From positions 12,626 to 76,625 of the forward strand of contig JBPYEW010000225.1 in NCBI GenBank assembly GCA_051984555.1: a DNA stretch of 64,000 nucleotides, written 5' to 3'. The translations under genes and the position numbers were made by a program. Shown here one piece after another: positions 103-42,295 of this stretch. The notes under the pieces were generated by a model that was given only the letters and a program-made list of their open reading frames with translations, made no database searches and was not told the DNA's origin. The stretch is from Terriglobales bacterium (lineage in GTDB: Bacteria; Acidobacteriota; Terriglobia; Terriglobales; Acidobacteriaceae). Numbering within the stretch: the stretch's first letter is position 1; every line of letters begins with the position of its first letter.

Positions 103-1152
103 TTACCATTCCAGCAATACGAGTTCGGAACAGAATCCCGGCCCCATGGCCGCCAGTATGCTCAAGCTGCCCTCGGGCGGACGCCGCCGCCCCATGTAGT
201 CTTCCAGGACCAGCAGCACGGAAGCGGAAGACAGGTTTCCCACTTTCGCCAGGCACTCCCACGACGCGTCCAGCGCCGAATCCGACAATTCCAGCGCCTT
301 CTCGGTCGCCTCAAGAATCTTTGGTCCGCCTGTATGCATAATCCAGGTCCCAATGTCGCTACGGCTCAGTTCGTACTCCGCCAGAAATGCGTCAACATCA
401 TTCGCCAGATGCTTCTGCACCATCTCCGGAACGCTGCGGGAAAGCACCAGCTCAAAACCTTTTTCGGAAATGTCCCACCCCATCACGTCCTCTGTGCCGG
501 GATAGAAAATGGATTTCGTAGCAACAATCCGTGGTCCGTGATTCACGCGCTCACAGCCGCCGACAATTACCGCGGCCGCGCCATCGCCAAACAATCCCGT
601 GGCGATCAGGTTCGACATAGTCAGATCGTTTTTCTGCCACGTCAACGAGCACAGCTCTACCGCAACCAGAGCGGCCAACTGATTGGGATATCCGCGCACG
701 TAATCTGCTGCCCGCGCGATTCCAGCCGCGCCCGCCACGCAACCCAATCCGAAAATCGGAATACGTTTCACATTCGGCGACAGTCCCATGCGGTTGATCA
801 TCCGGCCCTCAATCGATGGACTGGCCACACCTGTCACGGTGACGAAGAAAATCGCTCCCAGTTCCTCGGCGCCTACGCCTGCCTGGTTGAGTGCCCGGCA
901 CAACGCCATCTTCCCCAATTCCTGCGCCGATTCGATCCACGCATCATTCGCCTGTCCCCACGTGCTTAAGTCCTGGTAACGCTCGATTGGAAGTGACAGA
1001 TAACGGCCTTCGACTCCGATTAAGTTATGCAGCCGGTCAACCAGTTCGGGCTTGTGAATCTTTCCGCCCCAACTCTCTTTCAGTGCCTTTCGGATTACGC
1101 TTTGTGGGTAATAATGTTTCGGAAACGCGCTAGCGACGCCTGCGATTCTCAT
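103..1152 (-). CDS. Type III polyketide synthase (chalcone/stilbene synthase family)
   Basis: 349-aa ORF. It has the active-site Cys context IFGLGCVAGAAG and a thiolase-fold C-terminal half (GGPKILE, AAMGPGF), which is typical length and layout for a bacterial type III PKS. Confidence 0.9.
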   Translation of the reverse strand: MRIAGVASAFPKHYYPQSVIRKALKESWGGKIHKPELVDRLHNLIGVEGRYLSLPIERYQDLSTWGQANDAWIESAQELGKMALCRALNQAGVGAEELGAIFFVTVTGVASPSIEGRMINRMGLSPNVKRIPIFGLGCVAGAAGIARAADYVRGYPNQLAALVAVELCSLTWQKNDLTMSNLIATGLFGDGAAAVIVGGCERVNHGPRIVATKSIFYPGTEDVMGWDISEKGFELVLSRSVPEMVQKHLANDVDAFLAEYELSRSDIGTWIMHTGGPKILEATEKALELSDSALDASWECLAKVGNLSSASVLLVLEDYMGRRRPPEGSLSILAAMGPGFCSELVLLEW

Positions 1153-4612: not shown

Positions 4613-5326
4613 TCAGACTCTGTCCGCGGCTGCCGGGCTGATCACGTGCAGGCCGCACTCGGTTTTCGTGAATCCCGACCACCGCCCGGCTCTGGGATCC
4701 TCGCCCGGCCCGACGGCGCGCGTGCAATGCGTGCAACCAATACTCGGATAACTCTGGTCGTGTAGGGGATTGTAGAGAACCTTGTGCTGATGGATGTAGT
4801 TCCAAACCTGTTTATCGCTCCAGTCGGCCAGCGGATTGATTTTAATCAGGCCAAACTTTGCGTCCCAACTGATCTTGCGCGCACTCGCCCTCTGGGCTGT
4901 CTGATCCCGGCGAATACTGCTGATCCAGGCACGCAGGTGGCTCAATTTTCTCCGCAGCGGCTCGACTTTACGAATCTCGCAGCACTGGTCAGGATTTCGG
5001 GTCCACAACGCAGCTCCGTGAAGGCGCTCCTGTTCCTCCGGCGAGAGTAGCGGGCACATCCTTTCGATCTTGATCCCGTAGCGTTCTTCCACCTGATCGA
5101 TCAGGTTGTACGTCTCGGGAAAGAAAAACTCTGTATCAACCGTAAACACACGGAACTTGTGGGTGACTTTCGACGCGAGATCAATCGTCACCATGCCTTC
5201 AACCCCAAAGGCGGAAGAGATTGCCACATCATTCCCAAAGGTATGAAACGCCCAACGCAACACTTGATCGGCTGTCCACGATTCGGCTGCTGACTGCACT
5301 TCTTCCATTGACGTTTGAGGGCTCAC
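4613..5326 (-). CDS. cysH: Adenylyl-sulfate/phosphoadenylyl-sulfate reductase (thioredoxin-dependent, Fe-S type)
   Basis: PAPS-reductase fold with the CC...CxxC Fe-S ligands (QCCEIRKVEPL, GCTHCT) and the C-terminal catalytic ECGLH. Its start overlaps the stop of the upstream methyltransferase gene. Confidence 0.9.
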   Translation of the reverse strand: MSPQTSMEEVQSAAESWTADQVLRWAFHTFGNDVAISSAFGVEGMVTIDLASKVTHKFRVFTVDTEFFFPETYNLIDQVEERYGIKIERMCPLLSPEEQERLHGAALWTRNPDQCCEIRKVEPLRRKLSHLRAWISSIRRDQTAQRASARKISWDAKFGLIKINPLADWSDKQVWNYIHQHKVLYNPLHDQSYPSIGCTHCTRAVGPGEDPRAGRWSGFTKTECGLHVISPAAADRV

Positions 5327-6129
5327 GACACTATTTCCTCGTTCTCTTTCTGCTGATAAAGAAAGTCAGCGGGCATCGGATGGCGTTCGGCCACAGCGGC
5401 GTACTCTTGCAACTGATCGGCGCGCGCGAACCGGACCACCTCGCCAACCACCAGCAGTGTTGGTCCAGCGAGACGCGGTGCACGATGTAATTCGCCCACG
5501 GTTGTCGCGTAAATTTGCTGTCGTGGAGTCGTCGCTCGCGACACGATGGCGCACGTGGTTTCGTGCTTCGCACCTGCCGCTCGCAAGCGTGCAGCAACGG
5601 CCGCATATTGATGGCCGGGCATGTAGATCACCAGCGTCGCCCCACTCGTCATGAACTTTCGCCAATCTGTATCTTCGTTGTCGGGAGCACGATGACCGGT
5701 CAGCAGGATCACCGCTGGTGAAGCATCCCGGTGTGTCAGCGGGATCTCCGCGATCGCAGCTGCTCCAAAGGCCGAGGTCACGCCCGGTACGATCTCGTAT
5801 TCGATCTTCGCGGCACGCAGTGCTTCAATCTCTTCTGCTATCCGCCCAAAAATCAGCGGATCGCCACTCTTCAGGCGCACGACCTGTAGACCTGAAGCAG
5901 CAAGCCCGATCATGAGGAAGTTGATCTCCGGCTGCGTGATCTTCTTTTTGCCGCAAAGTTTGCCGACATTGTGAATTTGAGCGAAAGGCGAAACCAGTTT
6001 CAGAACTTCCGGTGAGACCAATTCGTCGTGAAGAACCGCCTCCGCATGTTTCAACAGGCGTGCCGCTTTGACCGTCAGCAGATCAGGGTCGCCTGGGCCG
6101 GCTCCCACAAGAAAAACTTTGCCGGTCAT
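5323..6129 (-). CDS. cobA: Uroporphyrinogen-III C-methyltransferase (siroheme branch)
   Basis: N-terminal FLVGAGPGDPDLLTVKA SAM-binding motif and tetrapyrrole methylase length. It overlaps both neighbouring genes by 4 nt. Confidence 0.9.
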   Translation of the reverse strand: MTGKVFLVGAGPGDPDLLTVKAARLLKHAEAVLHDELVSPEVLKLVSPFAQIHNVGKLCGKKKITQPEINFLMIGLAASGLQVVRLKSGDPLIFGRIAEEIEALRAAKIEYEIVPGVTSAFGAAAIAEIPLTHRDASPAVILLTGHRAPDNEDTDWRKFMTSGATLVIYMPGHQYAAVAARLRAAGAKHETTCAIVSRATTPRQQIYATTVGELHRAPRLAGPTLLVVGEVVRFARADQLQEYAAVAERHPMPADFLYQQKENEEIVS

Positions 6130-8450: not shown

Positions 8451-8492
8451 AAAAATGAAAAACCCACCGCCAAATTGCTCTGGCGATGGGTT
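8451..8492 (-). terminator. Intrinsic terminator/attenuator hairpin immediately upstream of the sir start codon
   Basis: The minus-strand RNA reads AACCCAUCGCCA-GAGCAAUU-UGGCGGUGGGUU, a 12-bp stem with one G-U pair. It is followed by UUUUUCAUUUUU and then directly by the ATG at 8450. Confidence 0.7.
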
Positions 8493-8517
8493 TATGAGTG
8501 CTGAGATTACTAATTTA

Positions 8518-8812: not shown

Positions 8813-9913
8813 CTAGGCGAGCGCCGGCAAGGGGCGGATCTGGATAAGCGGCCCATGCTTCTCGCCCTGTTCCCTGAGCAGCATATTCGCCGAGCGAATG
8901 CCAGTCCGCTGGAAAGACTTCTCGCAATCCGCCGTGGACGGACCGCGCATATTACCCTCCATGTAGGCGAGCCCTGGGCACCGCGTACATGTTCCGACAT
9001 GAGAGCAGGTCGAACACACTGGCAGGTCCTTGGCCCGAATCGATCGCACTTGCTCCAACTCAGGCGATCCTCGCCAGATGTCCAGAAACTTCTGGTGCCG
9101 CACATTTCCCGTCGGCAAAGGAAACTGAACGCAGGGAAATACGTCGCCATAAGGTGAGATGTAGCAGGCCGTATGCCCCGCACTGCACGGATATCCTTCC
9201 ATGATGTCCTCACCCGGCGGCGGAGGTGGTGCGCAAAATTCTTCTACATCGCCGACCAGGTCGGAATTCCTGAACACATTCTTCAGTTCCTCGCTCGGAG
9301 GCCTGAGTGCCAGGATGGATGTGTCACCATCAATCTTAGGCGTGATCGTGGGATCGAGCGTATAGTGCACACCTAATTCTTTCGCCAGTGCAATAACTCC
9401 CGCGCCGTCGCCCACATTCTCAGTCATCAGCACATTGGCCATCGTTACCTTGAGCCCCTGGGCTTTCAAGAAACGAATCGCTTCGACCGTATGCTTTAAC
9501 GATCCTGGCAGTTTGGTGATTCCATCATGCACTTCCGCTCGATGGGAATAAACACTGATCTGAATCTGTTCGACGCCCAGTTCGCGGATGCGCCGCGCTT
9601 CCGCTTCGCGAATCATCACCCCGTTGGTTTTGATCTTGACGTTGAACAGTAGTCGGCGCGCGTATGCGACGATCTCCAGGAAATCGCGACGCATGAAGAC
9701 TTCGCCGCCGCTTAGAACCAGGAAGAAAACCCCGGCCTCGGCCAACTGGTCAAGGACGTCCTTGATTTCCGCCGTGGTCATCTCCCCCAAATCATCATGA
9801 TCGAGATAGCAATGCACGCACCGCTCGTTACAGCGGTACGTCACGTCGACGTGAACACTGATCGGCACGCCTAACTCGAGCGCCCGGTAGTTCATCTGCG
9901 ACATCAGGTTCAT
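8813..9913 (-). CDS. Radical SAM / SPASM-domain peptide-modifying enzyme
   Basis: CX3CX2C motif in VDVTYRCNERCVHCY. The C-terminal region is Cys-rich and SPASM-like (CSAGHTACYISPYGDVFPC ... CSTCSHVGTCTRCPG ... DCEKS). It overlaps the upstream PqqD gene by 4 nt. Confidence 0.9.
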   Translation of the reverse strand: MNLMSQMNYRALELGVPISVHVDVTYRCNERCVHCYLDHDDLGEMTTAEIKDVLDQLAEAGVFFLVLSGGEVFMRRDFLEIVAYARRLLFNVKIKTNGVMIREAEARRIRELGVEQIQISVYSHRAEVHDGITKLPGSLKHTVEAIRFLKAQGLKVTMANVLMTENVGDGAGVIALAKELGVHYTLDPTITPKIDGDTSILALRPPSEELKNVFRNSDLVGDVEEFCAPPPPPGEDIMEGYPCSAGHTACYISPYGDVFPCVQFPLPTGNVRHQKFLDIWRGSPELEQVRSIRAKDLPVCSTCSHVGTCTRCPGLAYMEGNMRGPSTADCEKSFQRTGIRSANMLLREQGEKHGPLIQIRPLPALA

Positions 9914-10227
9914 TGCGCCCCCGGAGATGCGGCCGACGATTGTTCGATGGGAGTGTCGGAAACCAGCAGGATGCCATGCTGCGCCAAATCGTTCACGAAC
10001 TGCTCGGCATCCCGGCTGGCGTGTTCCTCGTCGATATCGAATCGCTCACAGATCTTCTGCGAAATGATGGTTGACAGGGGCGTGTGCCCATCCGCTGCTT
10101 GCCAGATTACGGTCGCCACTTCATTGAGCGTAAAGAACGTCGAGTCGGTTACCGACATTACCATCATCTCACCGCCCAGCATACGCGCGGCGATTTGCGT
10201 GCTCCTGGCTATGTATTTCTCTGTCAT
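9910..10227 (-). CDS. PqqD-family peptide chaperone (RiPP recognition element)
   Basis: The start is set at ATG 10227 (MTEKYIARS...), which forms an ATGA overlap with the kinase stop. The PqqD-like core is FFTLNEVATVIWQAADGHTPLSTIISQKICERFDID...FVNDLAQHGIL. Confidence 0.85.
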   Translation of the reverse strand: MTEKYIARSTQIAARMLGGEMMVMSVTDSTFFTLNEVATVIWQAADGHTPLSTIISQKICERFDIDEEHASRDAEQFVNDLAQHGILLVSDTPIEQSSAASPGAQ

Positions 10228-11045
10228 GACTGGCGAATCATCTCCCAAACCCGCTGATCCGGCACAAACGTCAAGCGCTTTACGGGAACGCTGGATACAA
10301 ATTCGCAAGCCGACTGGAACACCATCTTCACGAGTTCGGTGTCTTCCGCGAAGAACAAGATGTTTCGCAACAACAGCCGCGCTGCTTCTTTCACGTCAAT
10401 ATCCTCAACCCTGTTTGCCGGCCCTTTCGCCAGCAAAAACAGAGTCGAGACGGGTGCGGATTGGTTTTCCCCTGGCTTTGCCAGCTCCCCGGAAAACGGC
10501 GTTCCACATGCCCGATAACCGCCGCCCTCGCGGCGAACGTAAGACACCTCATCGGTCAGCAGAGTGACATCAGGCGGGGCTAATCTTGAGATCGTCGTTT
10601 TTCCCGCACCCGAAACTCCCGCGAACAGATACGCGCGTCCTCCACGTATCCCACTAGCCGCATGCAACAGAAAACCACCTTCTTCCGCCAGGATCAACGT
10701 ATGCACAATGCGCAACACCGAATCAATCGCGTACGGGCTGGCAGCTTGCCGTATTCGCCCCAGCGCCGACCTCGCGTCCCACTCCGCCTCAAAATCTCCG
10801 CGCTTCAAGTGCCAGTTTCCGTCGCGAACCTGCACGATCACATTCTCATCCGCGTCCTTGTCCTCCGAGGGCTCAAGGAGCTCGACATCGAACGCATACC
10901 GCGGCTGCTTGGAGTCGCCGATAAACCCGCTGTACCGGCTCTCGAGCATTCGCCGGAATCCTGAGTCCCCAGTGCGCAGTAATATTGGCATCCCGCCAAT
11001 ATCGATGGCCACTCCGGGTCTCTGATCGAGGCCGCTCATGCACAA
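10224..11045 (-). CDS. HPr-kinase-related serine kinase-like protein
   Basis: P-loop context LLHAASGIRGGRAYLFAGVSGAGKTTISRL...LLTDEVSYV resembles the HprK/P C-terminal catalytic domain. An alternative start lies at ATG 11039. It overlaps the end of the peptidase gene. Confidence 0.8.
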   Translation of the reverse strand: MCMSGLDQRPGVAIDIGGMPILLRTGDSGFRRMLESRYSGFIGDSKQPRYAFDVELLEPSEDKDADENVIVQVRDGNWHLKRGDFEAEWDARSALGRIRQAASPYAIDSVLRIVHTLILAEEGGFLLHAASGIRGGRAYLFAGVSGAGKTTISRLAPPDVTLLTDEVSYVRREGGGYRACGTPFSGELAKPGENQSAPVSTLFLLAKGPANRVEDIDVKEAARLLLRNILFFAEDTELVKMVFQSACEFVSSVPVKRLTFVPDQRVWEMIRQS

Positions 11046-11542
11046 TCTTCCTGCGCGGACAATGGATCGGGCTGAACTTCCCGAACCAGGGCGCGCCGCA
11101 ATCGCAATGCAATATTTACTGCAACAGCCGATCGACCTAGGAGCGCCCCTACGATACGATTCATCGGCGAACGCCGGCGCTCAGGCGTAATAGTTCGCCC
11201 TTTCCGCTCGATCAACGTCACTTTTCCAAGGAGTTCCGCTCCTGAAACGGGATCTGCGTGGGTCATCGAGTCTCCACGCGTGCTGAGTGGGTAAGAATTC
11301 CCATCCGCGATCAAAGTGAGTCGGTGAACCCGAAAGCCATCTTCGGCCAAGACCAGAACGATATCCCCGACGCAAATGTCCGCTGCCCGCTTGCTTTCGA
11401 TGCTGAGCACATCTCCCGGCCAAATGGTGGGAAGCATACTGGTCCCTTGCGCTTTCAACCGGATCCGGTTTCCGGAGCGCAGCACGTCGACCGCAAGAGT
11501 GAGCCTTGAGTTCTGGCGAGCCTCGATGGCGGTTACCATCAC
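11036..11542 (-). CDS. S24/S26-fold serine peptidase, signal-peptidase-like (Ser/His type), no N-terminal membrane anchor
   Basis: Ser box GTSMLPTIWPGDVL. VHRL sits where bacterial SPase I has the catalytic Lys (K-R-V/I). TRGDSMTHAD box present. The start is GTG 11542 or ATG 11539. The N-terminus is hydrophilic. Confidence 0.75.
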   Translation of the reverse strand: MMVTAIEARQNSRLTLAVDVLRSGNRIRLKAQGTSMLPTIWPGDVLSIESKRAADICVGDIVLVLAEDGFRVHRLTLIADGNSYPLSTRGDSMTHADPVSGAELLGKVTLIERKGRTITPERRRSPMNRIVGALLGRSAVAVNIALRLRRALVREVQPDPLSAQEDCA

Positions 11543-11549
11543 GCGTGGA

Positions 11550-11726
11550 TTATGAGAACTTCCGGTTGAACCGACATCCTTGCACGGTCGGGTGGATCTT
11601 GCCGCAAGCGAGCGCCATGGTTTCGAAGACCTTTTCGTGCTTGAACTCCGGCTTTTTGTACGGCCGCTTGGGCGTACCCTTCTGGTCAGCGATATTTTCG
11701 CTGGCTTTCTGGTTTTTTTCTCTCAT
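11550..11726 (-). CDS. Candidate RiPP precursor peptide (58 aa)
   Basis: The internal ATG 11726 of ORF 11550-11909 gives MREKNQKASENIADQKGTPKRPYKKPEFKHEKVFETMALACGKIHPTVQGCRFNRKFS. It is the first gene of the operon, and its stop lies 7 nt before the peptidase start. It has a charged leader, a YxxPxF motif, an AxA motif, two Cys and a C-terminal Ser. Confidence 0.6.
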   Translation of the reverse strand: MREKNQKASENIADQKGTPKRPYKKPEFKHEKVFETMALACGKIHPTVQGCRFNRKFS

Positions 11727-11907
11727 ATCTGTCCACACGCCCCCGCCGGGCTGGGCGACGATAAGGTGATGAGGTGCGTTGCCGCTAAGTGTATAACAAC
11801 TATAAAGTTTTGATAAGCAGTAATGTTCCGTCGGATGCACTCGAAGTACACCTTGGATGCCCACTCGCTCATCCCAATCTGTTAACGCGTTCAACCCCGA
11901 ATTCCGC

Positions 11908-12993
11908 ATGCTGCTTGCGTGCTGTCAACATACGTGTCGACGCCCGGAAATCGAACGCCTTGTGGATACCGTCGACTCAACCGTCCTTCTGGAACTTGCC
12001 GAAAAGCACGGGATAATCCCGCAGCTTCACCTCGGCCTCGCCGACTATTCAGCTCGCATTCCTGCCTGGGCGGACTTGCACAGTCTTTTTGAGAAAAATG
12101 CCCGGCGAGCACTTTGGCTTACCCAACTCTTGGAAAAAATCCTGGGTCTGCTGCATTCCCGTGAAATCGACGCTCTGCCCTACAAGGGTCCGGCCCTGGC
12201 ACAAGTCCTGTATGGTGACATCTCCATGCGTCAATACATGGACCTCGATATCCTGGTTCGCACCGCTTGCCTGCCCGCGGCCAACGACGCTTTACGGGAG
12301 ATCGGCCTCTCTCGCCACCTCCAGCTAAATCCGGCCGAAGAACAGGCTTTCGTCGATTCTCACTACGAATACGCTTTCGATGGATTCGGCGCACCCAACA
12401 TCGTCGAACTCCAGTGGCAAATTCTGCCGCGGTTCTACGCGATCGATCTAGAGGTCGAACCACTTTTCGACCGGGCTGTCACCGTTCCGCTCGGCGGGTC
12501 TCATGTGCGCTCTTTGTGCAACGAAGACCTCTTCCTGGTTTTGTGCATTCACGCTGCCAAGCATCTATGGGGACGGCTTTCCTGGATCCTGGACATCGCA
12601 CGACTAGCGGAAAGCGGTTCGATCGATTGGGACACGATCGACAAACGAGTTAAGAGCTTGGGTATAAGCAGGATTGTGGCAGTCTCGTGCGCCCTCGCCC
12701 GTTCGCTATTCGGGACCGAATATCCCGGTTCCACGAGCTTCGCGGTAGATGAAGATGTTGTCCGGTCGATCCTGCAGAGATTGCCGGCCGGCGAGCAACC
12801 CGACACAGAGTCCCCTGGTTATTTCCGTGAGATATTTCGCCTACGCGAGCGACGATCCGACCGCATTCGTTTCGTATTTCGCCTTGTGACCACTCCGAGT
12901 ATCAGCGAATGGAGCGTGGTTCGCCTCCCGCCATCGCTGTTTCCTCTCTATCGGGTCGTGCGGCTATTTCGACTGCTCGGCAAAATCGTCTAA
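11908..12993 (+). CDS. Uncharacterised nucleotidyltransferase family protein (PF14907-like)
   Basis: ORF 11857-12993. I prefer ATG 11908 because it avoids overlap with the divergent precursor region. The N-terminus (LLACC....E...L......W..LL.LA..HG..P.L) and the approximately 360-aa size are typical of this family. It is transcribed divergently from the RiPP operon. Confidence 0.7.
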   Translation: MLLACCQHTCRRPEIERLVDTVDSTVLLELAEKHGIIPQLHLGLADYSARIPAWADLHSLFEKNARRALWLTQLLEKILGLLHSREIDALPYKGPALAQVLYGDISMRQYMDLDILVRTACLPAANDALREIGLSRHLQLNPAEEQAFVDSHYEYAFDGFGAPNIVELQWQILPRFYAIDLEVEPLFDRAVTVPLGGSHVRSLCNEDLFLVLCIHAAKHLWGRLSWILDIARLAESGSIDWDTIDKRVKSLGISRIVAVSCALARSLFGTEYPGSTSFAVDEDVVRSILQRLPAGEQPDTESPGYFREIFRLRERRSDRIRFVFRLVTTPSISEWSVVRLPPSLFPLYRVVRLFRLLGKIV

Positions 12994-13000
12994 TCGGGCG

Positions 13001-13804
13001 TCATTTCGCATTGGCTTTGGCCCGTGCCAGCCCTGCGCGCAATGCCCGCTCAACGATCCGAGCGTGTCCGGCGTCCTCCATCGCTTTAGTCACAGTTGCG
13101 GCAATGCCGCCAGGCGTAGCCGCTTCGTGCAGCAGTTCGTCGAGCGGGATACCGCCCTCCCGCCAAGAAACAACGCCTTCTCCCAAGGCATGGGCCGCGG
13201 CCATCAACGCCGTCTTTCGATCCAAGCCGATCCGCTCGGCCGCCTTCGCCAGCGTCGCCAGCGCGTGATACCCGTGACTGACGGAATATGTGACCGTAAA
13301 TGCATCGAACTTTTTCTCGGAGATTTCCAACACGCTTCCTACTCTTCCGAAGAAATCTCGCACTTCTTCTTTCGCCCGGGTTGGCGTCCCGGGCGGGAAA
13401 GTTAATGCAGTGAGTCCCTTTCCAAAGCGGCAGGTGGGACTCGGCATGGCACGCACCCAGGCGACTCGGCTGCCTAGCTGGCGCCGGAGCTGGCGAAGCG
13501 GGATCCCAGCCGCCACGCTCACGGCAGTCACGGCACGCGGGATATCCTCGATCTCCGACAGCAAGTCCCGCACCGAGTCTGGACGGACGGCAACCATCAG
13601 CAAGCGCCCCGGTGCAACCGCTCGCTGCAGATCTGATTCAGTTTTGACCCCGAATCTTCTCTTCAGTAGACGGAGTTTCTCAGGGTTGCGATCGTAGACC
13701 AGGATCGGTTGGGCATACGATGCTAGCCGCAATCCTGAAATCAACGCAGTCGTGATCCGGCCGCCGCCGAGGAAAACTGTCGCGCTATTCACAGCGAGGC
13801 GCAT
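13001..13804 (-). CDS. Pyrroline-5-carboxylate reductase-like NAD(P)H oxidoreductase
   Basis: N-terminal Rossmann motif VFLGGGRITTALISGL. The C-terminal P5CR dimerisation domain carries TPGGIAATV. It overlaps the upstream aminotransferase gene by 16 nt. Confidence 0.8.
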   Translation of the reverse strand: MRLAVNSATVFLGGGRITTALISGLRLASYAQPILVYDRNPEKLRLLKRRFGVKTESDLQRAVAPGRLLMVAVRPDSVRDLLSEIEDIPRAVTAVSVAAGIPLRQLRRQLGSRVAWVRAMPSPTCRFGKGLTALTFPPGTPTRAKEEVRDFFGRVGSVLEISEKKFDAFTVTYSVSHGYHALATLAKAAERIGLDRKTALMAAAHALGEGVVSWREGGIPLDELLHEAATPGGIAATVTKAMEDAGHARIVERALRAGLARAKANAK

Positions 13805-15132
13805 GCCTCGTCTGCTGCACGGATCAAGGTTTCGACATCGCTTTGCGTGTGAGCGGTGCTGATAATCCAGTGCAGCCCATTGGAAGGCGTCATGTAGATC
13901 CCGCGGCCGAGCAGCGCCTGCACGAAGCGGCTGTACTTCGCGGTATCCACGTACGAGCAGTAGTCGCGGTAGTCTCGTATTTCATCGCGTGCCGTGAAGT
14001 AGATCTGAAACATCGGCCCAAACCCTTGCACTATGGCCTTCAATTTTCGACGCGTGAAGACCTCCCGTAAACCGGCAATGGCGCTATCGCCGATCACATG
14101 CAGTTGCCGGTAGGCCCCGTGGTCGCCCGCAGAAAGCAGGTCGAGATTCGTCGCCACCACCTTCATCGTTAATCGATGTCCGTTAAAGGTCCCGTAATGC
14201 AGAACCATGTGATCGCCCCATCGCATACGGTCGAGAATTGAACGCGAACCTGCGACCGCTCCAATCGGGAACCCGGCGCCAAGAGCCTTTCCGAACGTGC
14301 TGATATCGGGCTTAACTCCGTAGTATTCCTGGCACCCTCCCGGTGCGTAACGGAATCCCGTCACAACTTCATCGAGAACCAGCAAGGCGCCGTACTCCCG
14401 TGTGATCTCTCGTACCTTCTGCAGGTAGCCCTCTTTCGGCAGAATGCAGCCCATGTTCGCCATGATGGGCTCGGTGATCACTGCAGCCAGATCCCGACCG
14501 TGCTGTTCCATCACCCGCTCAAATGCTTCCACATCGTTCCATGGCGTAATCACCACGTCATCGAACGTTGCCGGCGGGATCCCTTCTGAGTCCGGAATAC
14601 GTGCCGGATTTTCACGCGGACCTAACTGTTCCGGCGGATGACTATGTGCATTGAGAAGGTAGGGATCGTACCAGCCGTGATAATGGCCTTCGAATTTCAG
14701 AAATTTTGTCCGACCCGTATGCGCTCGCGCTAACCGCAGCGCCAGCATAGTCGCTTCGCTCCCGGTGTTCGCGAAACGCACGCTTTCCGCCGACGGCACC
14801 ATGCGCTGGAATTTCTCGGCTGCCTCAACTTCCGCTGAAGTGGCTGCCGCAAAGTGCGAACCTTCCGCCACGCTCTCGGACACGACCTGGACGATCCGCG
14901 GGTGCGCGTGGCCTTGGATCAGGGCACCGAACGACATCATGAAATCGACATACTCGTTTGCATCCGCGTCCCACACGTGCGATCCCCGACCGCGCTCCAG
15001 CACGATTGGGCCGCCCGAGTACACCGCCGACCCTCGTGACGGCGAATTCACCCCCTCGACCAGCGTTTGCTGTGCCCGTTCAAACCACTGCCGGGAGCGG
15101 TCCAATTTGCGTGACTCGGTGGTGGAACTCAT
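13789..15132 (-). CDS. Class III PLP aminotransferase (glutamate-1-semialdehyde aminomutase-like)
   Basis: VNSPSRGS, FANTGSEATMLALRLARAHTGR, LVLDEVVTGFR and the PLP-Lys context DISTFGKALGAGFP are all present. Confidence 0.9.
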   Translation of the reverse strand: MSSTTESRKLDRSRQWFERAQQTLVEGVNSPSRGSAVYSGGPIVLERGRGSHVWDADANEYVDFMMSFGALIQGHAHPRIVQVVSESVAEGSHFAAATSAEVEAAEKFQRMVPSAESVRFANTGSEATMLALRLARAHTGRTKFLKFEGHYHGWYDPYLLNAHSHPPEQLGPRENPARIPDSEGIPPATFDDVVITPWNDVEAFERVMEQHGRDLAAVITEPIMANMGCILPKEGYLQKVREITREYGALLVLDEVVTGFRYAPGGCQEYYGVKPDISTFGKALGAGFPIGAVAGSRSILDRMRWGDHMVLHYGTFNGHRLTMKVVATNLDLLSAGDHGAYRQLHVIGDSAIAGLREVFTRRKLKAIVQGFGPMFQIYFTARDEIRDYRDYCSYVDTAKYSRFVQALLGRGIYMTPSNGLHWIISTAHTQSDVETLIRAADEACASL

Positions 15133-15893
15133 CAGTCCGCCGTGCCGCCTCCATCGACCGCCACTGCCGCACCTGTCATGAAAGACGAATCATCTGACGC
15201 CAGAAACAGCACTACCTTGGCAATTTCCTCGGGACTGCCAACTCTTCCCATGGGACGATTGGCCGCGCCGGCCATGTAATCCTCCCAGCGCAGCCCTCGA
15301 AACTGCGCATCCTGCGGCAGCATCGGCGTATCGACGTCTCCCGGGCAAACGCAATTCACGCGAATACCTTGCCTGCCGTGATCAATAGCCATGGCTTTCG
15401 TAAGCAGAACAATGCCCCCTTTCGCGGCACAATACGCCACGGCCTTGTCGCCGCCAACCAGTCCCCAACCCGAACTGTTGTTGACGATCACTCCCCCGCC
15501 CTGCCGGATCATGTGTGGCAGGACATACTTCGACATGAGGAATGTACCTTTCAGGCTGACGTCGATCTGCTCGTCCCATTCTTTTTCCGTGCACTCGATG
15601 GCATCGTGCGCGTAGAAAACACCGGCATTATTGAACAAGATGTCGACTTGACCGAATTTCCTCACGGTCTCTTCCACTACGCGTTGGCAATCTTCGGATC
15701 GGGAAACATCCGTCTTGATGAACAGACTTGAGACAGAATTGCCAATCCTGTCGCTTACTGCTTTGCCCCGATCCAGGTTCCGTCCTGTGATGACAACCTT
15801 GGCGCCCTCTTTCGCAAACAACTCTGCCGTGGCCGCCCCAATTCCAGATGTCCCGCCAGTGATAATCGCGATCTTGTCTTGCAGGCGCATCAC
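15132..15893 (-). CDS. Short-chain dehydrogenase/reductase (SDR)
   Basis: TGGTSGIGAA cofactor motif, NNAG, and catalytic YCAAKGG (YxxxK). Confidence 0.9.
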   Translation of the reverse strand: MMRLQDKIAIITGGTSGIGAATAELFAKEGAKVVITGRNLDRGKAVSDRIGNSVSSLFIKTDVSRSEDCQRVVEETVRKFGQVDILFNNAGVFYAHDAIECTEKEWDEQIDVSLKGTFLMSKYVLPHMIRQGGGVIVNNSSGWGLVGGDKAVAYCAAKGGIVLLTKAMAIDHGRQGIRVNCVCPGDVDTPMLPQDAQFRGLRWEDYMAGAANRPMGRVGSPEEIAKVVLFLASDDSSFMTGAAVAVDGGGTAD

Positions 15894-16684
15894 ACCGACC
15901 CCGCCAGGCCGCCGCCGTCCACGATCAGCGCCGTGCCGGTCACAAACGAAGACGCGCCGCTCGCCAGGTAAAGGGCAGCCTGCGCGATTTCTTCCGGCGT
16001 TCCTACCCGTCCCAACGGTCGTTTGGCTGCCTCGGACAAAAACTTTTCGTCCCCTTCTCCGAGTTGTCGGGCTTCATTGCGCAGCATCGCAGTATCCGTA
16101 TCTCCGGGGCAGATACAGTTCACTCGAATATTCTGCGGCCCATGGTCAACAGCCATCGCTTTCGTAAGCAGGACAACACCGCCTTTGGAAGCGCAGTACA
16201 CCGCCGCTTTCGCACCTCCCGTCAGCCCCCACCCCGAAGCGGTGTTGATGATGACTCCACCACCCTGCTTGGCCATGATCGGTATTGCACACCGGGACAT
16301 CAGGAAGACTGACTTCACATTCACGTCCATCACACGGTCCCAATCATCTTCGCTGAGATCGACGACCGTTGCCCGACGAATAATGCCGGCATTATTGAAC
16401 AGAATGTCCAGCCTCCCGAATTGCTCAAGCGCGTATTCGACTACCTTTTTACAGTCAGAGGTCCTGGTGACATCACACGGGAGGAACCGGGCCCGCTGGC
16501 CGGCGTTCGCGATTTTCTCGATCACCTGCTCGCCACTCGAACGATTGATGTCAGCGACGACAACCGCTGCACCCTCTCGCGCAAATAGCTCTGCCGTGGC
16601 GTGGCCAATACCCGATGCGCCACCGGTAATCAAAGCGACTTTGTCTATAAGCTGCAAGGTAAAACGCGTGGCGTCCAGATCCAC
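15890..16684 (-). CDS. Short-chain dehydrogenase/reductase (SDR)
   Basis: TGGASGIGHA, NNAG and YCASKGG. It overlaps the next SDR gene by 4 nt. Confidence 0.9.
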   Translation of the reverse strand: MDLDATRFTLQLIDKVALITGGASGIGHATAELFAREGAAVVVADINRSSGEQVIEKIANAGQRARFLPCDVTRTSDCKKVVEYALEQFGRLDILFNNAGIIRRATVVDLSEDDWDRVMDVNVKSVFLMSRCAIPIMAKQGGGVIINTASGWGLTGGAKAAVYCASKGGVVLLTKAMAVDHGPQNIRVNCICPGDTDTAMLRNEARQLGEGDEKFLSEAAKRPLGRVGTPEEIAQAALYLASGASSFVTGTALIVDGGGLAGSV

Positions 16685-39097: not shown

Positions 39098-42000
39098 CTA
39101 GTCAACGGAGCGCACATCATCTGTGAGGAACATGACAAACTTGCAGCCTCCCGTCTCAGCCTTGCAGGAGAGCACCCCCCGGCGCAGGATCTTGGCCTGC
39201 GTATCATCCGGCAGACTTACGTTGTAGTTCATCCCCCGCAGCGCATCGGCCATCTTCTTGAGTTTCTCGTCGCCGCTGATGAACTTCACGCTCTCAACAG
39301 CCGCCCTGGAAGCCGAGGCGCTGAAAAGAACGAAGAACTCAGCGGTTCCGTCCTCGTTCGATAATTTGCCGAGATCGACCGAGCGCAATGCTTCTAATTG
39401 ATCTTTGTATTTGGCCGTGGTTGCGGAGATTCTCGAATCTCCGCCCACGAGTGCCGCCAAGCGAGATCGCGTTTCCGGCGCCGGACGCACAGCTTGCAGG
39501 GCAAGCGCATATGCTTGTATCGCCTTATCCTTTTCCCCCCGCTTCTCGTAGATTTGCCCGAGGTGATCACCGACTTCTCCGTGCTCACCGATCAACCATG
39601 CAGCGGAGACGTACTTTTCGGCGTTTCTGAGATCCCCTTTTGCGAAATACACCCAGCCCAATGTGTCCCAATAAGCGACCAGCGATGGCACAAGTCCCAG
39701 ATCGCGCACGCTGAGTTGTTCCAGAGTCACATTTCGCAGGCCGGCAGTAGTCGCGGCTACCGCGGATTCCGCGTATTGTTGTGCCTTATCGAGGTGAGCT
39801 TTCTTCAGTGACAACTGATAGGCAATGTTGTTCCACACCACCGGCGTGGCCGACATTTCAATCGCCTTGTCGAATGCAGCGAGCGCTTTGTCATCTTGCC
39901 CGAGATTCAAATAGGCATCACCCAGATTGACCTGCAATATCGGATCATCCGAGTTGAGGGAAACGGCCTTCTCTAATTCGGGTATCGCCTCGTCATACTT
40001 GTGCCATTCGCCGTACATGGTGCCCAGATTCGAATGGGCAAAATGATCGAGCGGGTTCACTTCTATCTGTTTGCGAAAAGCCTTGGTTGCTTGCTCGTAG
40101 TTACGATCGAGCCAGTACGCCCGGCCCATATTGTTGTACGCGAATTCGTCGTATGGATTAACCTCGGACTGTTTCTGGAATGCCGCAATTGCCTCTATCG
40201 TCTGCCGCTGGGCAAGGTAAGCATTCCCCAAGTTGTTCCACGCTGATTTGTGTTTGGGATCAGCTTCGACAGCGCGTTTCAACAATGAAACGGCCAAGGG
40301 ATAATTACCATTCTGCAGTGCCGAAAAACCGCTTTCGTTCAACTCGTCTGCTTTCAGGTTTGGCGGCGGAGTGGGATTTCCCGCAACGCTGCTCTCCATG
40401 GAGACATGCTGCACGAGATCAGACAAGACGGCACGGCGGAAAGCACTGTAGTCGCCTATTCTCGCAGTATCCAACTCGCGCTCGCGAAGGACCAGCCTGC
40501 GTTCCGCCGTGAACAGGCCACTGTCGAGCTTGTATGCTGCCTGATATTCCGCGTAATCCCGTTTCATCGCGAAGGGCAGAGGATTTTGCGCAGAGTACCT
40601 CGGGGGTAGCTGAACCTTGATCCGATATATGTATTCCCCGGGCGGGCCAAACTTGATGGGCTCCGCATCGGGCCCGCTATCTTCATCGTCTACATCGGCC
40701 AGCGGAAACTGGGAAAGTGGAAGGTCGAATTGAGACTTCTTTTTGGACCAATCGAAGTAATTTGCCTTACTGATCGTGTATTCGAATTCGAAGGCTTTGC
40801 GGGTTCCGGCGGGATCGCCGACTTTCAGGTCCGTTACCTCTCCGTCAAGTCCGCCCATGCTATTCATGTTCTCCACCATGCGTTGCCATTGTGGGCGGGG
40901 CACCCTACGGAAGATCGTACGCATGAGCAGTTCCGTATCTCCGCGCATGGTGTAATGAACGTGCATAGTCAACTTGCCGAGTTCGCTGACCTTCCCGTCC
41001 AGTTCTTCGAGTTGTGAATTTTGCATGGGCGGGTCCGCCGGAGTTTCCTCTAATCGGCCTGCACCATCGGGAGGGACCACCAAAGCTTGCTTCTTGCGAA
41101 GGTTGAAGGACAGTAGGCGATAAGGGGCGACCTCGGCGGTAGTATCCATCCAGATTTCGTCTTTTCCCAAGGGCAATAGAGTGATCACGTGGTCGAACTG
41201 TGACGGCGAAGGGACGTCGGGATCGAGTTTCCGGCTGGAGTTTATCAAGACCGAAGAAGCTTTGTAGCCCGCAGCATCCAGCATCGCCTCCAACAAAGTG
41301 TGCTTGTCCTTACAATCGCCGTATTGATTCTGAAACACGTCTCCTGCTGGATGCGGCTGGTATCGGGCAAGTCCCAGCGAGAGGCTTACATATCGAAAGT
41401 TAGTGGAAACGTAGTCATACAGGGCCTGGATCTTTTCAGAATCGCTGTTCAGCCCTTGGACCAATTCTCCGGCTTTGGCCTTTATGTCCGCATTCGGCAC
41501 TCGCCGATCGCGTTCCAGACCGGCATACCACCGCCCCACCTCCTCCCAACTGGGAAATGTGGTCATCTGAATGGTAGGCGTTTCCAGATCGGGCTTGTTT
41601 CTCTTCTTCTTGTCCTTGTCTTTATCGTCATCGTCTCGAACCAGGTTCGAACTGGTCCAGCGATACAGGCGACGATCCTTCTCGTCGGTGATTTTGGAGT
41701 CGAACCCAGCTTTCGTCTTGAGCTTGACCACCCGCTCTCGGGGAACATCCACGACGAGTTGTTCATCAAGAACGATGCTGCTCTTATCGAAGTCGTAGTC
41801 CATCCAGAATTGGTTCGGAGCCATAGCGGTGTGGATTACGGTAACGATGTCGTACTCCAGTTGCTCACCCGGTCGCAAACCCGGCACCGTAATGTGCTTC
41901 TGACGGTAATCCGTATAGACCGGCGCTTCTCTCTGCACGGGCGAACTCAAGTCCTGCACAGCATCCGGCGGAGCCGTTACGACACTTCCATTGGCTTTGT

Positions 42001-42295
42001 GTACTCGCACGTATGGGATTTCAACCCTCTCATTCGCCGAGTTGTAGCCGACCACGACTTGACCCCACTGGCTCACACCAGCTTCGCTCTGAACGCGAAT
42101 CCGGGCGTAGATCTCCTTTCGTCCCGTACCATCCTTCTCGAAACGGTAATTAGTACGGATCTGCTCTACGACGAAGGACTCCTGCGAGTAATCAGGCGAG
42201 GCACCCGATTTCTCCGATGGTTTACCTTCGGGCTTTTGGGCTACGCAGACAAGGGTTACGAATACGAGAAAAAGGGAGGAAAGCCGACGCGTCAT
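39098..42295 (-). CDS. Secreted DUF3857-like / transglutaminase-like cysteine protease core / TPR-repeat protein
   Basis: 1065 aa with the signal peptide LSSLFLVFVTLVCVAQ. The transglutaminase core Cys context is QYGDCKDKHTLLEAMLDAAG. The C-terminal third has multiple TPR-like repeats (AWNNLGNAY, AYNNMGRAY, AHSNLGTMY). Confidence 0.8.
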   Translation of the reverse strand: MTRRLSSLFLVFVTLVCVAQKPEGKPSEKSGASPDYSQESFVVEQIRTNYRFEKDGTGRKEIYARIRVQSEAGVSQWGQVVVGYNSANERVEIPYVRVHKANGSVVTAPPDAVQDLSSPVQREAPVYTDYRQKHITVPGLRPGEQLEYDIVTVIHTAMAPNQFWMDYDFDKSSIVLDEQLVVDVPRERVVKLKTKAGFDSKITDEKDRRLYRWTSSNLVRDDDDKDKDKKKRNKPDLETPTIQMTTFPSWEEVGRWYAGLERDRRVPNADIKAKAGELVQGLNSDSEKIQALYDYVSTNFRYVSLSLGLARYQPHPAGDVFQNQYGDCKDKHTLLEAMLDAAGYKASSVLINSSRKLDPDVPSPSQFDHVITLLPLGKDEIWMDTTAEVAPYRLLSFNLRKKQALVVPPDGAGRLEETPADPPMQNSQLEELDGKVSELGKLTMHVHYTMRGDTELLMRTIFRRVPRPQWQRMVENMNSMGGLDGEVTDLKVGDPAGTRKAFEFEYTISKANYFDWSKKKSQFDLPLSQFPLADVDDEDSGPDAEPIKFGPPGEYIYRIKVQLPPRYSAQNPLPFAMKRDYAEYQAAYKLDSGLFTAERRLVLRERELDTARIGDYSAFRRAVLSDLVQHVSMESSVAGNPTPPPNLKADELNESGFSALQNGNYPLAVSLLKRAVEADPKHKSAWNNLGNAYLAQRQTIEAIAAFQKQSEVNPYDEFAYNNMGRAYWLDRNYEQATKAFRKQIEVNPLDHFAHSNLGTMYGEWHKYDEAIPELEKAVSLNSDDPILQVNLGDAYLNLGQDDKALAAFDKAIEMSATPVVWNNIAYQLSLKKAHLDKAQQYAESAVAATTAGLRNVTLEQLSVRDLGLVPSLVAYWDTLGWVYFAKGDLRNAEKYVSAAWLIGEHGEVGDHLGQIYEKRGEKDKAIQAYALALQAVRPAPETRSRLAALVGGDSRISATTAKYKDQLEALRSVDLGKLSNEDGTAEFFVLFSASASRAAVESVKFISGDEKLKKMADALRGMNYNVSLPDDTQAKILRRGVLSCKAETGGCKFVMFLTDDVRSVD

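Follow-up and report, generated by a model that had tools for sequence, protein, structure and literature searches.

The question raised by a cluster of six genes in a Terriglobales bacterium (Acidobacteriota; contig JBPYEW010000225.1) is what kind of peptide it makes and by what chemistry. The cluster is at positions 8813–12993 of the 64,000 nucleotide (nt) stretch of DNA analyzed here, termed the window, and encodes a small precursor peptide, a peptidase, a kinase, a PqqD-family protein, a radical S-adenosylmethionine (rSAM) enzyme with a SPASM domain, and a PF14907 protein. It is probable, though far from certain, that the locus is a cluster for a peptide made on the ribosome and modified after translation (RiPP) in which maturation machinery of the type found with linear polyphosphorylated peptides (LPPs) is joined to an rSAM/SPASM maturase. 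The chemistry assigned to it is deduced from sequence.

Gene order and its conservation

All six open reading frames (ORFs) are found in the ORF list of the window at the coordinates first proposed for them. On the minus strand, the precursor gene (11550–11726, with its stop codon at 11550–11552) is followed by genes for a signal peptidase I (SpI)-like serine peptidase (11036–11542), a P-loop kinase similar to LppK and ScmC (10224–11045), a discrete PqqD-family protein (9910–10227) and the rSAM/SPASM enzyme (8813–9913). The PF14907 (NTP_transf_5) gene is on the plus strand at 11857–12993, with its start at either 11857 or 11908. At three of the four minus-strand junctions (peptidase/kinase, kinase/PqqD and PqqD/rSAM) the genes overlap by ATGA, and the gap between the precursor stop codon and the start of the peptidase gene is 7 nt. 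The five minus-strand genes are an operon-like coupled unit, and the tight packing described in the original prediction is borne out. The families named in that prediction are confirmed by Pfam profile searches: PF00717 (Peptidase_S24, 30.9 bits) for the peptidase, PF05402 (58.1 bits) for the PqqD protein, PF04055 (81 bits) and PF13186 (SPASM, 48 bits) for the rSAM enzyme and PF14907 (176 bits) for the divergent gene. The likely start of the kinase is the ATG at 11039, which gives a 271 amino acid (aa) product, as called elsewhere.

Relatives of the kinase number in the thousands, nearly all of them from Acidobacteriota in soil and peat metagenomes. A first and more diverse kinase alignment (A2) was too divergent for a genome scan; a closer alignment (A3) was used as query against one genome per species, and gave 48 loci. 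Loci are cited below by L numbers. In about 44 of the 48 the order precursor, S24-like peptidase, kinase, PqqD and rSAM is kept while the flanking genes are unrelated. Because the same order recurs with different flanks, the arrangement is far beyond chance, and the synteny in relatives that the original prediction had proposed to look for is present. The syntenic loci are from Terriglobales, Acidobacteriaceae, Sulfotelmatobacter, Bryobacterales and Acidoferrales, together with one metagenome-assembled genome (MAG) labeled Thermomonas.

The precursor peptide

No family model matches the 58 aa ORF. It is nevertheless judged to be a real gene because 249 homologues of 51–63 aa have been called and identical 58 aa products are already called in other assemblies. 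A GGCGGGGG run is found 5′ of its ATG. Residues 1–20 are the variable N-terminus, the conserved leader motif RPYKKPEFKHEKVFET is at residues 21–36 (11619–11666), and the predicted 22 aa core MALACGKIHPTVQGCRFNRKFS is encoded at 11553–11618. The neutral monoisotopic mass of the unmodified 22-mer is 2463.245 Da. The leader in the window reads P-Y-K-K-P-E-F-K-H-E-K-V-F-E-T, and the 121 closest peptides display a variable N-terminus followed by the near-invariant sequence K-[RK]-P-Y-x-K-P-x-F-x-H-E-K-V-F-E-T-M-A-L-A-C-G-K-x-x-P-T-Q-x-Q-C-R-F-N-R-[RK]-x-S(end).

Core statistics were taken from 35 non-redundant genome loci, the core being the segment after FET (or FVT/FEV). Its length is 21–23 residues, with 22 in 28 of the 35 loci. 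Exactly two Cys residues are present in every one of the 35 cores, at position 5 and at about position 15, and every core ends in Ser, as do 120 of the 121 called peptides. This invariant Ser22 is the sole conserved hydroxyl residue, and the proposal that a C-terminal Ser is the phospho-acceptor, still a prediction, gains support from it. Over the 35 loci, mean pairwise identity rises from 16% in the N-terminus to 50% in the core and 68% in the leader motif. To judge from these alignments, the constraint on the Acidobacteriota core is unusual for a RiPP.

Relationship to linear polyphosphorylated peptides

LPP clusters, with the gene order lppA-K-B-S-D-N, have been described from Bacillota and as restricted to them (Popov et al., Nat Commun, May 2026; PMC13381572). 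Their parts are LppS, a SipW homologue of the archaeal signal peptidase type; LppB, a discrete RiPP recognition element (RRE); LppK, an HprK-like kinase; LppN, an NTP_transf_5 protein; and LppD, an MsbA-like pump; there is no lasso cyclase (PMC13381572). The LPP leader consensus is YxxPxVLxHQxIxFETxxS. LppS cuts LppA after FET in an RRE-dependent manner, the cleavage requires F-3, E-2 and T-1, and mutation of the catalytic residues S29, H68 and D93 of LppS abolishes it, while LppK polyphosphorylates core Ser3 (PMC13381572).

The window cluster has the same kinds of parts: a SpI-like Ser/His/Asp leader peptidase, a discrete PqqD RRE, a kinase of the LppK/ScmC type and an NTP_transf_5 protein, and a macrolactam cyclase is lacking in both systems. 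A leader motif of the form YxxP...H[QE]x[IV](x)FET is seen in both, the version here, YxxPxFxHExVFET, resembling the longer LPP consensus, and there is direct BLAST similarity of window proteins to LppK, LppS and LppN.

The only NCBIfam match of the peptidase is TIGR02228, the archaeal-type signal peptidase I model (32.8 bits, cut-off 51.85). By BLASTP it displays 36% identity to LppS over 95 aa (E-value = 6e-14) and 36% identity over 150 aa (E-value = 3e-21) to a Blastocatellia SpI from cluster 3 of the sequence similarity network (SSN) in the LPP paper. In an alignment of 43 peptidases S35, H73 and D97 are at least 95% conserved, and they align with S29, H68 and D93 of LppS. The protein is predicted to be a SpI-like leader peptidase of the archaeal/endoplasmic reticulum type, similar to SipW and LppS, with S35, H73 and D97 as its triad. 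By analogy with the LppA cut site, cleavage is predicted after FET, between T36 and M37. Leader removal by a signal-peptidase-like enzyme had been predicted for this locus, and experiments on the homologue LppS now provide a precedent (PMC13381572).

The best NCBIfam match of the 9910–10227 product is the lasso PqqD chaperone model NF033536 (39.7 bits, below cut-off). BLASTP aligns it with "other RRE" proteins that are beside Acidobacteriota SpI homologues of SSN cluster 3 (E-value = 2e-10) and with the lasso protein PbaB1 (E-value = 4e-7). Its gene overlaps its neighbors on both sides by ATGA, and the profile match marks it as a discrete PqqD-family RRE. SSN cluster 3 comprises SpI homologues of Acidobacteriota, Myxococcota, Chloroflexota and candidate phyla beside "other" RREs (Supplementary Data 1 of PMC13381572), and by BLASTP the window peptidase and RRE are nearer to the proteins of this cluster than to LppS and LppB.

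Several properties set the window cluster apart from the LPP clusters. An rSAM/SPASM gene is present, is obligatory and is translationally coupled to the RRE gene; radical SAM is not mentioned in the LPP paper or in the parts of its supplement covered here (PMC13381572). The host phylum is Acidobacteriota instead of Bacillota. LPP cores are long, vary greatly and have Ser at +3; the core here is short, fixed in length and conserved, with two Cys residues and a C-terminal Ser. The window leader has two residues fewer between P and FET, the genes are in a different order, relatives that have an exporter have one of the ABC-2 type where that of LPPs is MsbA-like, and, to judge by BLAST, the RRE may be outside the LppB clade.

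The original prediction did not recognize the combination of genes as belonging to a characterized class. That claim is now partly outdated, because four of the five enzyme/RRE components (peptidase, RRE, kinase and NTP_transf_5 protein, with no cyclase), together with an LPP-like leader, define LPPs. The new and uncharacterized features of the combination are an rSAM partner that is obligatory, the phylum, and a core of fixed length with two Cys residues and a terminal Ser.

The kinase

The best NCBIfam match of the kinase is TIGR04249 (ScmC; 45.9 bits, cut-off 125), with a weak PEPCK_ATP match, and its homologues bear the newer Pfam label PF27840 "ScmC". The term HPr-kinase-like, applied to it in the original prediction, holds at the superfamily or fold level only, because Pfam Hpr_kinase_C (PF07475) is not matched at E ≤ 0.01 and HPr kinase/phosphorylase (HPrK/P) is matched by structure. 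The AlphaFold2 (AF2) model of the kinase has a pLDDT of 85.8, and Foldseek matches it to ATP-dependent phosphoenolpyruvate carboxykinase (ATP-PEPCK; E-value = 1e-8) and to the HPrK/P catalytic domain (E-value = 1e-4). A profile search against PDB sequences gives a marginal PEPCK P-loop match alone (E-value = 0.047).

BLASTP shows 27% identity between the kinase and LppK over 191 aa (E-value = 1e-22), whereas similarity to the lasso kinases PbaK and BsfK is confined to the surroundings of the P-loop (E-value about 1e-4). LppK and the window kinase also display the same NCBIfam signature, with ScmC first, while PbaK has HPr(Ser) kinase first. Judged by these similarities the kinase is in the LppK/ScmC branch and not in the paeninodin (PadeK/PbaK) branch, and its earlier assignment as a paeninodin-type kinase does not hold. 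In an alignment of 43 sequences including LppK, the residues H128, GxSGxGKT (143–150) and D165/E166 are at least 97% conserved. D165/E166 are within an LL[ST]D[DE] stretch, which is part of the BLASTP alignments with both PbaK and LppK. The metal site D158/D159 of the lasso kinase PsmK has been mutated (PMC6993621), and by position this site would be within the same stretch, PsmK itself being outside the alignment. The predicted substrate of the kinase is a Ser residue of the precursor.

The kinase bears on the possibility that the locus is a degraded paeninodin-type lasso cluster which has lost its cyclase and B2 protease. Similarities to such clusters are found at several points. The PqqD protein scores best against lasso RRE models, the leader carries a YxxP motif, and a kinase gene with a PF14907 gene is typical of paeninodin-like clusters. 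Paeninodin and pseudomycoidin share with the window an HprK-superfamily kinase and a PF14907 protein, the combination of a YxxP-type leader with a discrete RRE, and a C-terminal Ser, which in both lasso peptides is phosphorylated and in pseudomycoidin is also the hexose site (PMC6993621). The window is unlike them, however, in that cyclase, B2 protease and ring-forming Asp/Glu are all lacking, and in a kinase whose resemblance to theirs is limited to the P-loop. Asn_synthase and Transglut_core3 are not found among the Pfam-scanned window ORFs (at least about 330 aa), and no Asn-synthetase-like cyclase or B2 protease family recurs in the 44 syntenic loci, in agreement with what had been reported for the window. 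In about 44 loci the architecture is likewise intact and has no cyclase. In the core, positions 7–9 are K-I-H in the window, position 7 is Lys in 34 of the 35 loci and Val in L032, and L016 alone of the listed cores has an acidic residue at positions 8–9, so that a conserved Asp/Glu, and with it a conserved lasso ring acceptor, is lacking. Since neither the loci nor the scanned window ORFs hold a cyclase or a B2 protease, and the kinase is LppK-like and not PbaK-like, decay from a lasso cluster is rejected as scarcely credible. A 1065 aa protein with a transglutaminase-like core, encoded on the minus strand at 39098–42295, 26 kb from the cluster, was considered as a B2 protease and rejected, as it is a DUF3857/TPR protein.

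The nearest named grouping of an rSAM enzyme, a PqqD homologue and an ScmC protein is SynChlorMet (SCM; ScmC TIGR04249, ScmD TIGR04248, ScmE/ScmF TIGR04250/04251). An ScmC-type P-loop protein, a PqqD homologue and an rSAM/SPASM enzyme are co-located in SCM as in the window, and the SCM models are among the best or near-best NCBIfam matches of the window proteins. The scores are far from the cut-offs, at 28.4 of 100 bits for ScmD, 107.4 of 400 for ScmE and 61.5 of 400 for ScmF in addition to the ScmC score given above, and distant cassettes in other phyla also miss them. There is one rSAM gene in the window and not two, and the S24-like peptidase and an identifiable precursor are extra. SCM is defined bioinformatically in TIGRFAMs/NCBIfam and has no characterized product; a paper search found no literature on it. 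Membership in SCM, GeoRSP, HPr-rel-A, pyrroloquinoline quinone (PQQ) or mycofactocin systems was rejected, as all NCBIfam cut-offs are missed.

The radical SAM/SPASM enzyme

The rSAM enzyme has the CX3CX2C motif at C28, C32 and C35, and across 42 homologues these and eight further Cys residues are conserved. Among solved structures SkfB (6efn, E-value = 1.7e-16) is the nearest, followed by PqqE (6c8v). Its NCBIfam scores are 140 bits for AhbD (cut-off 500), 137 for MftC (265), 104 for StsB (625), 97.8 for PqqE (381) and 85 for AlbA (850). Sactipeptide and ranthipeptide systems (SkfB, AlbA, PapB) resemble the window in their rSAM/SPASM enzyme with auxiliary-cluster Cys residues, in RRE-dependent leader recognition and in a Cys-containing core. 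Their RRE is an N-terminal domain of the enzyme; in the window no RRE domain is fused to the rSAM protein, and the RRE is a separate protein. No kinase, SpI-like peptidase or PF14907 gene is known from either class. The enzyme is predicted to modify the two-Cys core.

SPASM enzymes catalyze many types of reaction. The product could be an LPP-type phosphopeptide on which the rSAM enzyme carries out something other than cross-linking, e.g. epimerization, formylglycine-like Cys oxidation, C-C or C-O coupling or decarboxylation, the Cys pair serving as a disulfide or metal ligand. AhbD, NirJ2 and MftC rank ahead of the sactisynthases among the profile matches, and none of the equivalog cut-offs is reached. 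Two Cys residues are also present in several LPP cores of Bacillota for which there is no rSAM partner, according to the part of the supplement covered here (PMC13381572). This explanation is regarded as rather unlikely. The two Cys residues are at fixed positions in 35 of 35 cores and are always accompanied by an rSAM gene, Cys is kept in the distant versions that contain an rSAM gene, and the closest structure is that of a Cys-thioether synthase, SkfB.

The high rank of AhbD and NirJ2 also raises the possibility that the enzyme belongs to tetrapyrrole metabolism and is joined to an LPP-like cluster by position only, for it is followed in the window by a NIR_SIR sulfite reductase gene, a siroheme synthase-like gene and a TP_methylase gene. 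The AhbD score of 140 against a cut-off of 500 speaks against this, as does the overlap of the rSAM start with the PqqD stop codon. In about 40 loci the rSAM gene follows the PqqD gene with other genes downstream (F3, described below, PilZ, GGDEF and others). As the rSAM-PqqD coupling is kept while the downstream genes vary, the siroheme and sulfite reductase neighbors are taken to be coincidental, and a tetrapyrrole function is very unlikely.

The PF14907 gene and export

The PF14907 protein displays 23% identity to LppN over 154 aa (E-value = 3e-6, BLASTP). Of 50 non-redundant loci, 18 have a homologue no more than about 6.4 kb from the cassette, either divergently upstream or directly 3′ of the rSAM gene. 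The original prediction counted it among the core genes; with this distribution it is accessory. PsmN, of the pseudomycoidin system, is needed for addition of hexose to phospho-Ser (PMC6993621), and by analogy the PF14907 protein is possibly an LppN/PsmN-like accessory tailoring enzyme that acts on the phosphorylated peptide.

No transporter gene is found among the ORFs of the window in the cluster and its surroundings, as had been noted before, and L007 also has no ABC-2 pair. The absence is not general, since in the syntenic relatives L004 (5559–7162), L010 and L017 (7455–9052) an ABC_tran and ABC2_membrane gene pair is located between the PF14907 gene and the precursor gene. Such pairs are likewise found in L033, L036 and L048. 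This suggests that the window and L007 have lost the exporter or rely on a transporter encoded elsewhere.

Proposed maturation pathway

The chemical steps, their order and the residues modified are predictions built on gene content, homology, catalytic motifs, synteny and peptide conservation. The discrete PqqD RRE would bind the 58 aa precursor through the leader sequence P-Y-x-K-P-x-F-x-H-E-x-V-F-E-T and would present it to the rSAM/SPASM enzyme, which would modify the 22-residue core. The reaction is most probably the formation of one or two intramolecular thioethers of the sactipeptide or ranthipeptide type from Cys5 and Cys15. The RRE would then present the precursor to the LppK-like kinase for phosphorylation of Ser, possibly several times. 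Ser22 is the most probable acceptor because it is the sole conserved hydroxyl residue and has a parallel in the C-terminal Ser of paeninodin and pseudomycoidin. The SpI-like Ser/His/Asp peptidase would cut after FET (T36|M37), and where a PF14907 protein is present, as in the window, it may add a further group to the phosphate. In relatives, the ABC-2 transporter would export the product.

A number of findings weigh against this pathway. The TIGR02228 score of the peptidase and the ScmC score of the kinase are under the curated cut-offs, and the rSAM enzyme reaches no equivalog cut-off, those of the sactipeptide and ranthipeptide synthases included. Its reaction type is a prior and not a result, because its top matches AhbD, NirJ2 and MftC are not thioether synthases, and the core Cys pair could be a mere disulfide. 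The PqqD protein gives no BLASTP alignment with LppB. The phospho-acceptor is uncertain, because that of LPPs is core Ser3, and the cores here have Leu at position 3 and differ from one another at position 4, so that no Ser/Thr is conserved close to the cleavage site. Most loci lack PF14907, and no activity of LppN could be detected in a heterologous host (PMC13381572). Finally, no recognizable precursor is found beside the otherwise intact cassettes of L007, L018, L023, L026 and L049; in these the precursor may be encoded elsewhere in the genome, or its sequence may have diverged beyond detection. Of the relatives with the flanks of the window, L007 is the closest.

Function and evolution

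A family of secreted proteins of about 600 aa, termed F3, is often found next to the cassette. F3 proteins begin with a signal-like segment, contain the motif HLGYPxDWSSxHLLMPG and end in ...CAVKLTQxxLQ. They have no Pfam match, all F3 homologues are annotated as hypothetical, and the AF2 model obtained is unusable (pLDDT 29.7). The family is specific to Acidobacteriota, with multiple copies per genome. In 31 of the 44 loci an F3 gene adjoins the cassette, and it is nearly always on the same strand. Examples are L002 (10536–12416), L009 (12408–14249) and L040 (12335–14149), and it is upstream of the precursor gene in L013, L016, L020, L030, L032, L034, L035, L037 and L041. In some loci F3 is located between the PF14907 gene and the precursor gene, where other loci hold the ABC-2 pair. 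One locus, L012, has two precursor genes (5118–5354 and 9287–9517) with identical cores, MALSCGKVQSTQGQCHFNRKNS, and different N-termini, and several F3 paralogues are around them.

The frequent association with F3 is one of several observations that would fit a conserved physiological product, i.e. a signal, a cofactor or a surface or biofilm component in the manner of PQQ or mycofactocin and maybe tied to F3, in place of a secreted antibiotic-like peptide. Others are the 50% core identity across orders and near-invariance in the 121 closest peptides, the chromosomal and phylum-wide occurrence of the cassette with no immunity gene, and the presence of MftC among the best rSAM matches. The LPP authors suspect a capsule or biofilm role for those peptides (PMC13381572). 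The precursor, however, has neither the PqqA (E-x3-Y) nor the MftA (C-terminal GVY-type) signature, and the PqqE and MftC cut-offs are missed. F3 is absent from the 64-kb window and also occurs far from any cassette, and the ABC-2 exporter of the relatives fits a secreted peptide. A product of this kind is considered quite unlikely.

More distantly related cassettes of kinase, PqqD and rSAM genes, in other gene orders, are found in Omnitrophota (L051), Kiritimatiellia (L052 and L053) and Polyangia (L054). The L051 peptide has a YQKP leader, three Cys residues and a terminal Ser, with a PF14907 gene next to it. In L053 a peptide with a KPYTPP leader and two Cys residues is encoded between the rSAM and kinase genes, and the L054 cassette has in addition an S24-like gene. 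The YxxP leaders and Cys-containing cores are thus kept in distant cassettes, and this suggests that the kinase, RRE and rSAM module is older than its Acidobacteriota form.

If the joining of LPP-type machinery to an rSAM/SPASM maturase is correct, the LPP family would reach beyond Bacillota, and its kinase/RRE/SpI module would combine with radical SAM chemistry. It would yield a class of peptides that bear a cross-link together with a phosphate or glycosyl-phosphate, and would provide a second and independent system in which leader cleavage by signal-peptidase-like enzymes depends on an RRE. It would also offer a concrete operon of 3–4 kb, easily cloned, and a predicted 22-mer from a phylum that is dominant in soil and has hardly been explored for natural products. 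A literature search found nothing specific on Acidobacteria RiPPs or on an HPr kinase combined with radical SAM, PqqD and nucleotidyltransferase proteins, and for ranthipeptides of Acidobacteria only generic antiSMASH counts. The unusually conserved core suggests a physiological function in Acidobacteriota.

A more far-reaching proposal, possible but on balance unlikely, is that the cluster represents a phylum-wide, vertically maintained hybrid of Acidobacteriota. In such a hybrid, rSAM cross-linking, LPP-type Ser (poly)phosphorylation and SpI-like leader removal would together give a 22-residue, two-Cys, C-terminally modified peptide with a physiological role, possibly in conjunction with F3. 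This would be a new RiPP class. The LPPs of Bacillota would then be a reduced offshoot of an older kinase, RRE and rSAM module, which is also found in Omnitrophota, Kiritimatiellia and Polyangia.

Two observations concern individual assemblies. L046, the MAG labeled Thermomonas sp. (gammaproteobacterial), has a complete cassette with a typical Acidobacteriota-type precursor, which represents either horizontal transfer or a mis-binned contig. In the long-read MAGs L039, L043, L044, L045 and L047 the cassette genes are split into several fragments, and homopolymer or indel errors of assembly are more likely than pseudogenes.

Flanking sequences

The region between the precursor and PF14907 genes (11727–11856) is presumed from its position to hold the promoters of both. 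It was described as AT-rich; AT enrichment is present but mild, with a GC content of 0.515 compared to 0.56 in the window. A sigma-70 consensus scan finds no site in this region, and the number of sites given by the promoter/terminator consensus scan is the same as the expectation from shuffled sequence. An Rfam scan and a repeat scan of 8.0–13.5 kb also found nothing.

The consensus scan also gives a terminator-like hairpin of 15 pairs with a T run on the minus strand at 8460–8493, about 320 nt 3′ of the rSAM stop codon and immediately upstream of the start of the sulfite reductase gene (8450). It is possible that the hairpin is the end of the RiPP operon, or that it regulates the reductase gene. 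As an operon end it is weak, because such sites are no commoner than in shuffled sequence.

Adjoining the PF14907 gene, at 13001–16684 on the minus strand, are genes for a pyrroline-5-carboxylate reductase (P5CR)-like/F420-oxidoreductase, a class-III aminotransferase and two short-chain dehydrogenase/reductase (SDR) proteins. The same flank is found in L004, L007, L010 and L017 and is absent in L033. The block may be plain synteny, or may provide the PF14907 enzyme with a substrate. A type III polyketide synthase gene with chalcone/stilbene synthase domains, at the edge of the window (103–1152, minus strand), belongs to unrelated secondary metabolism.

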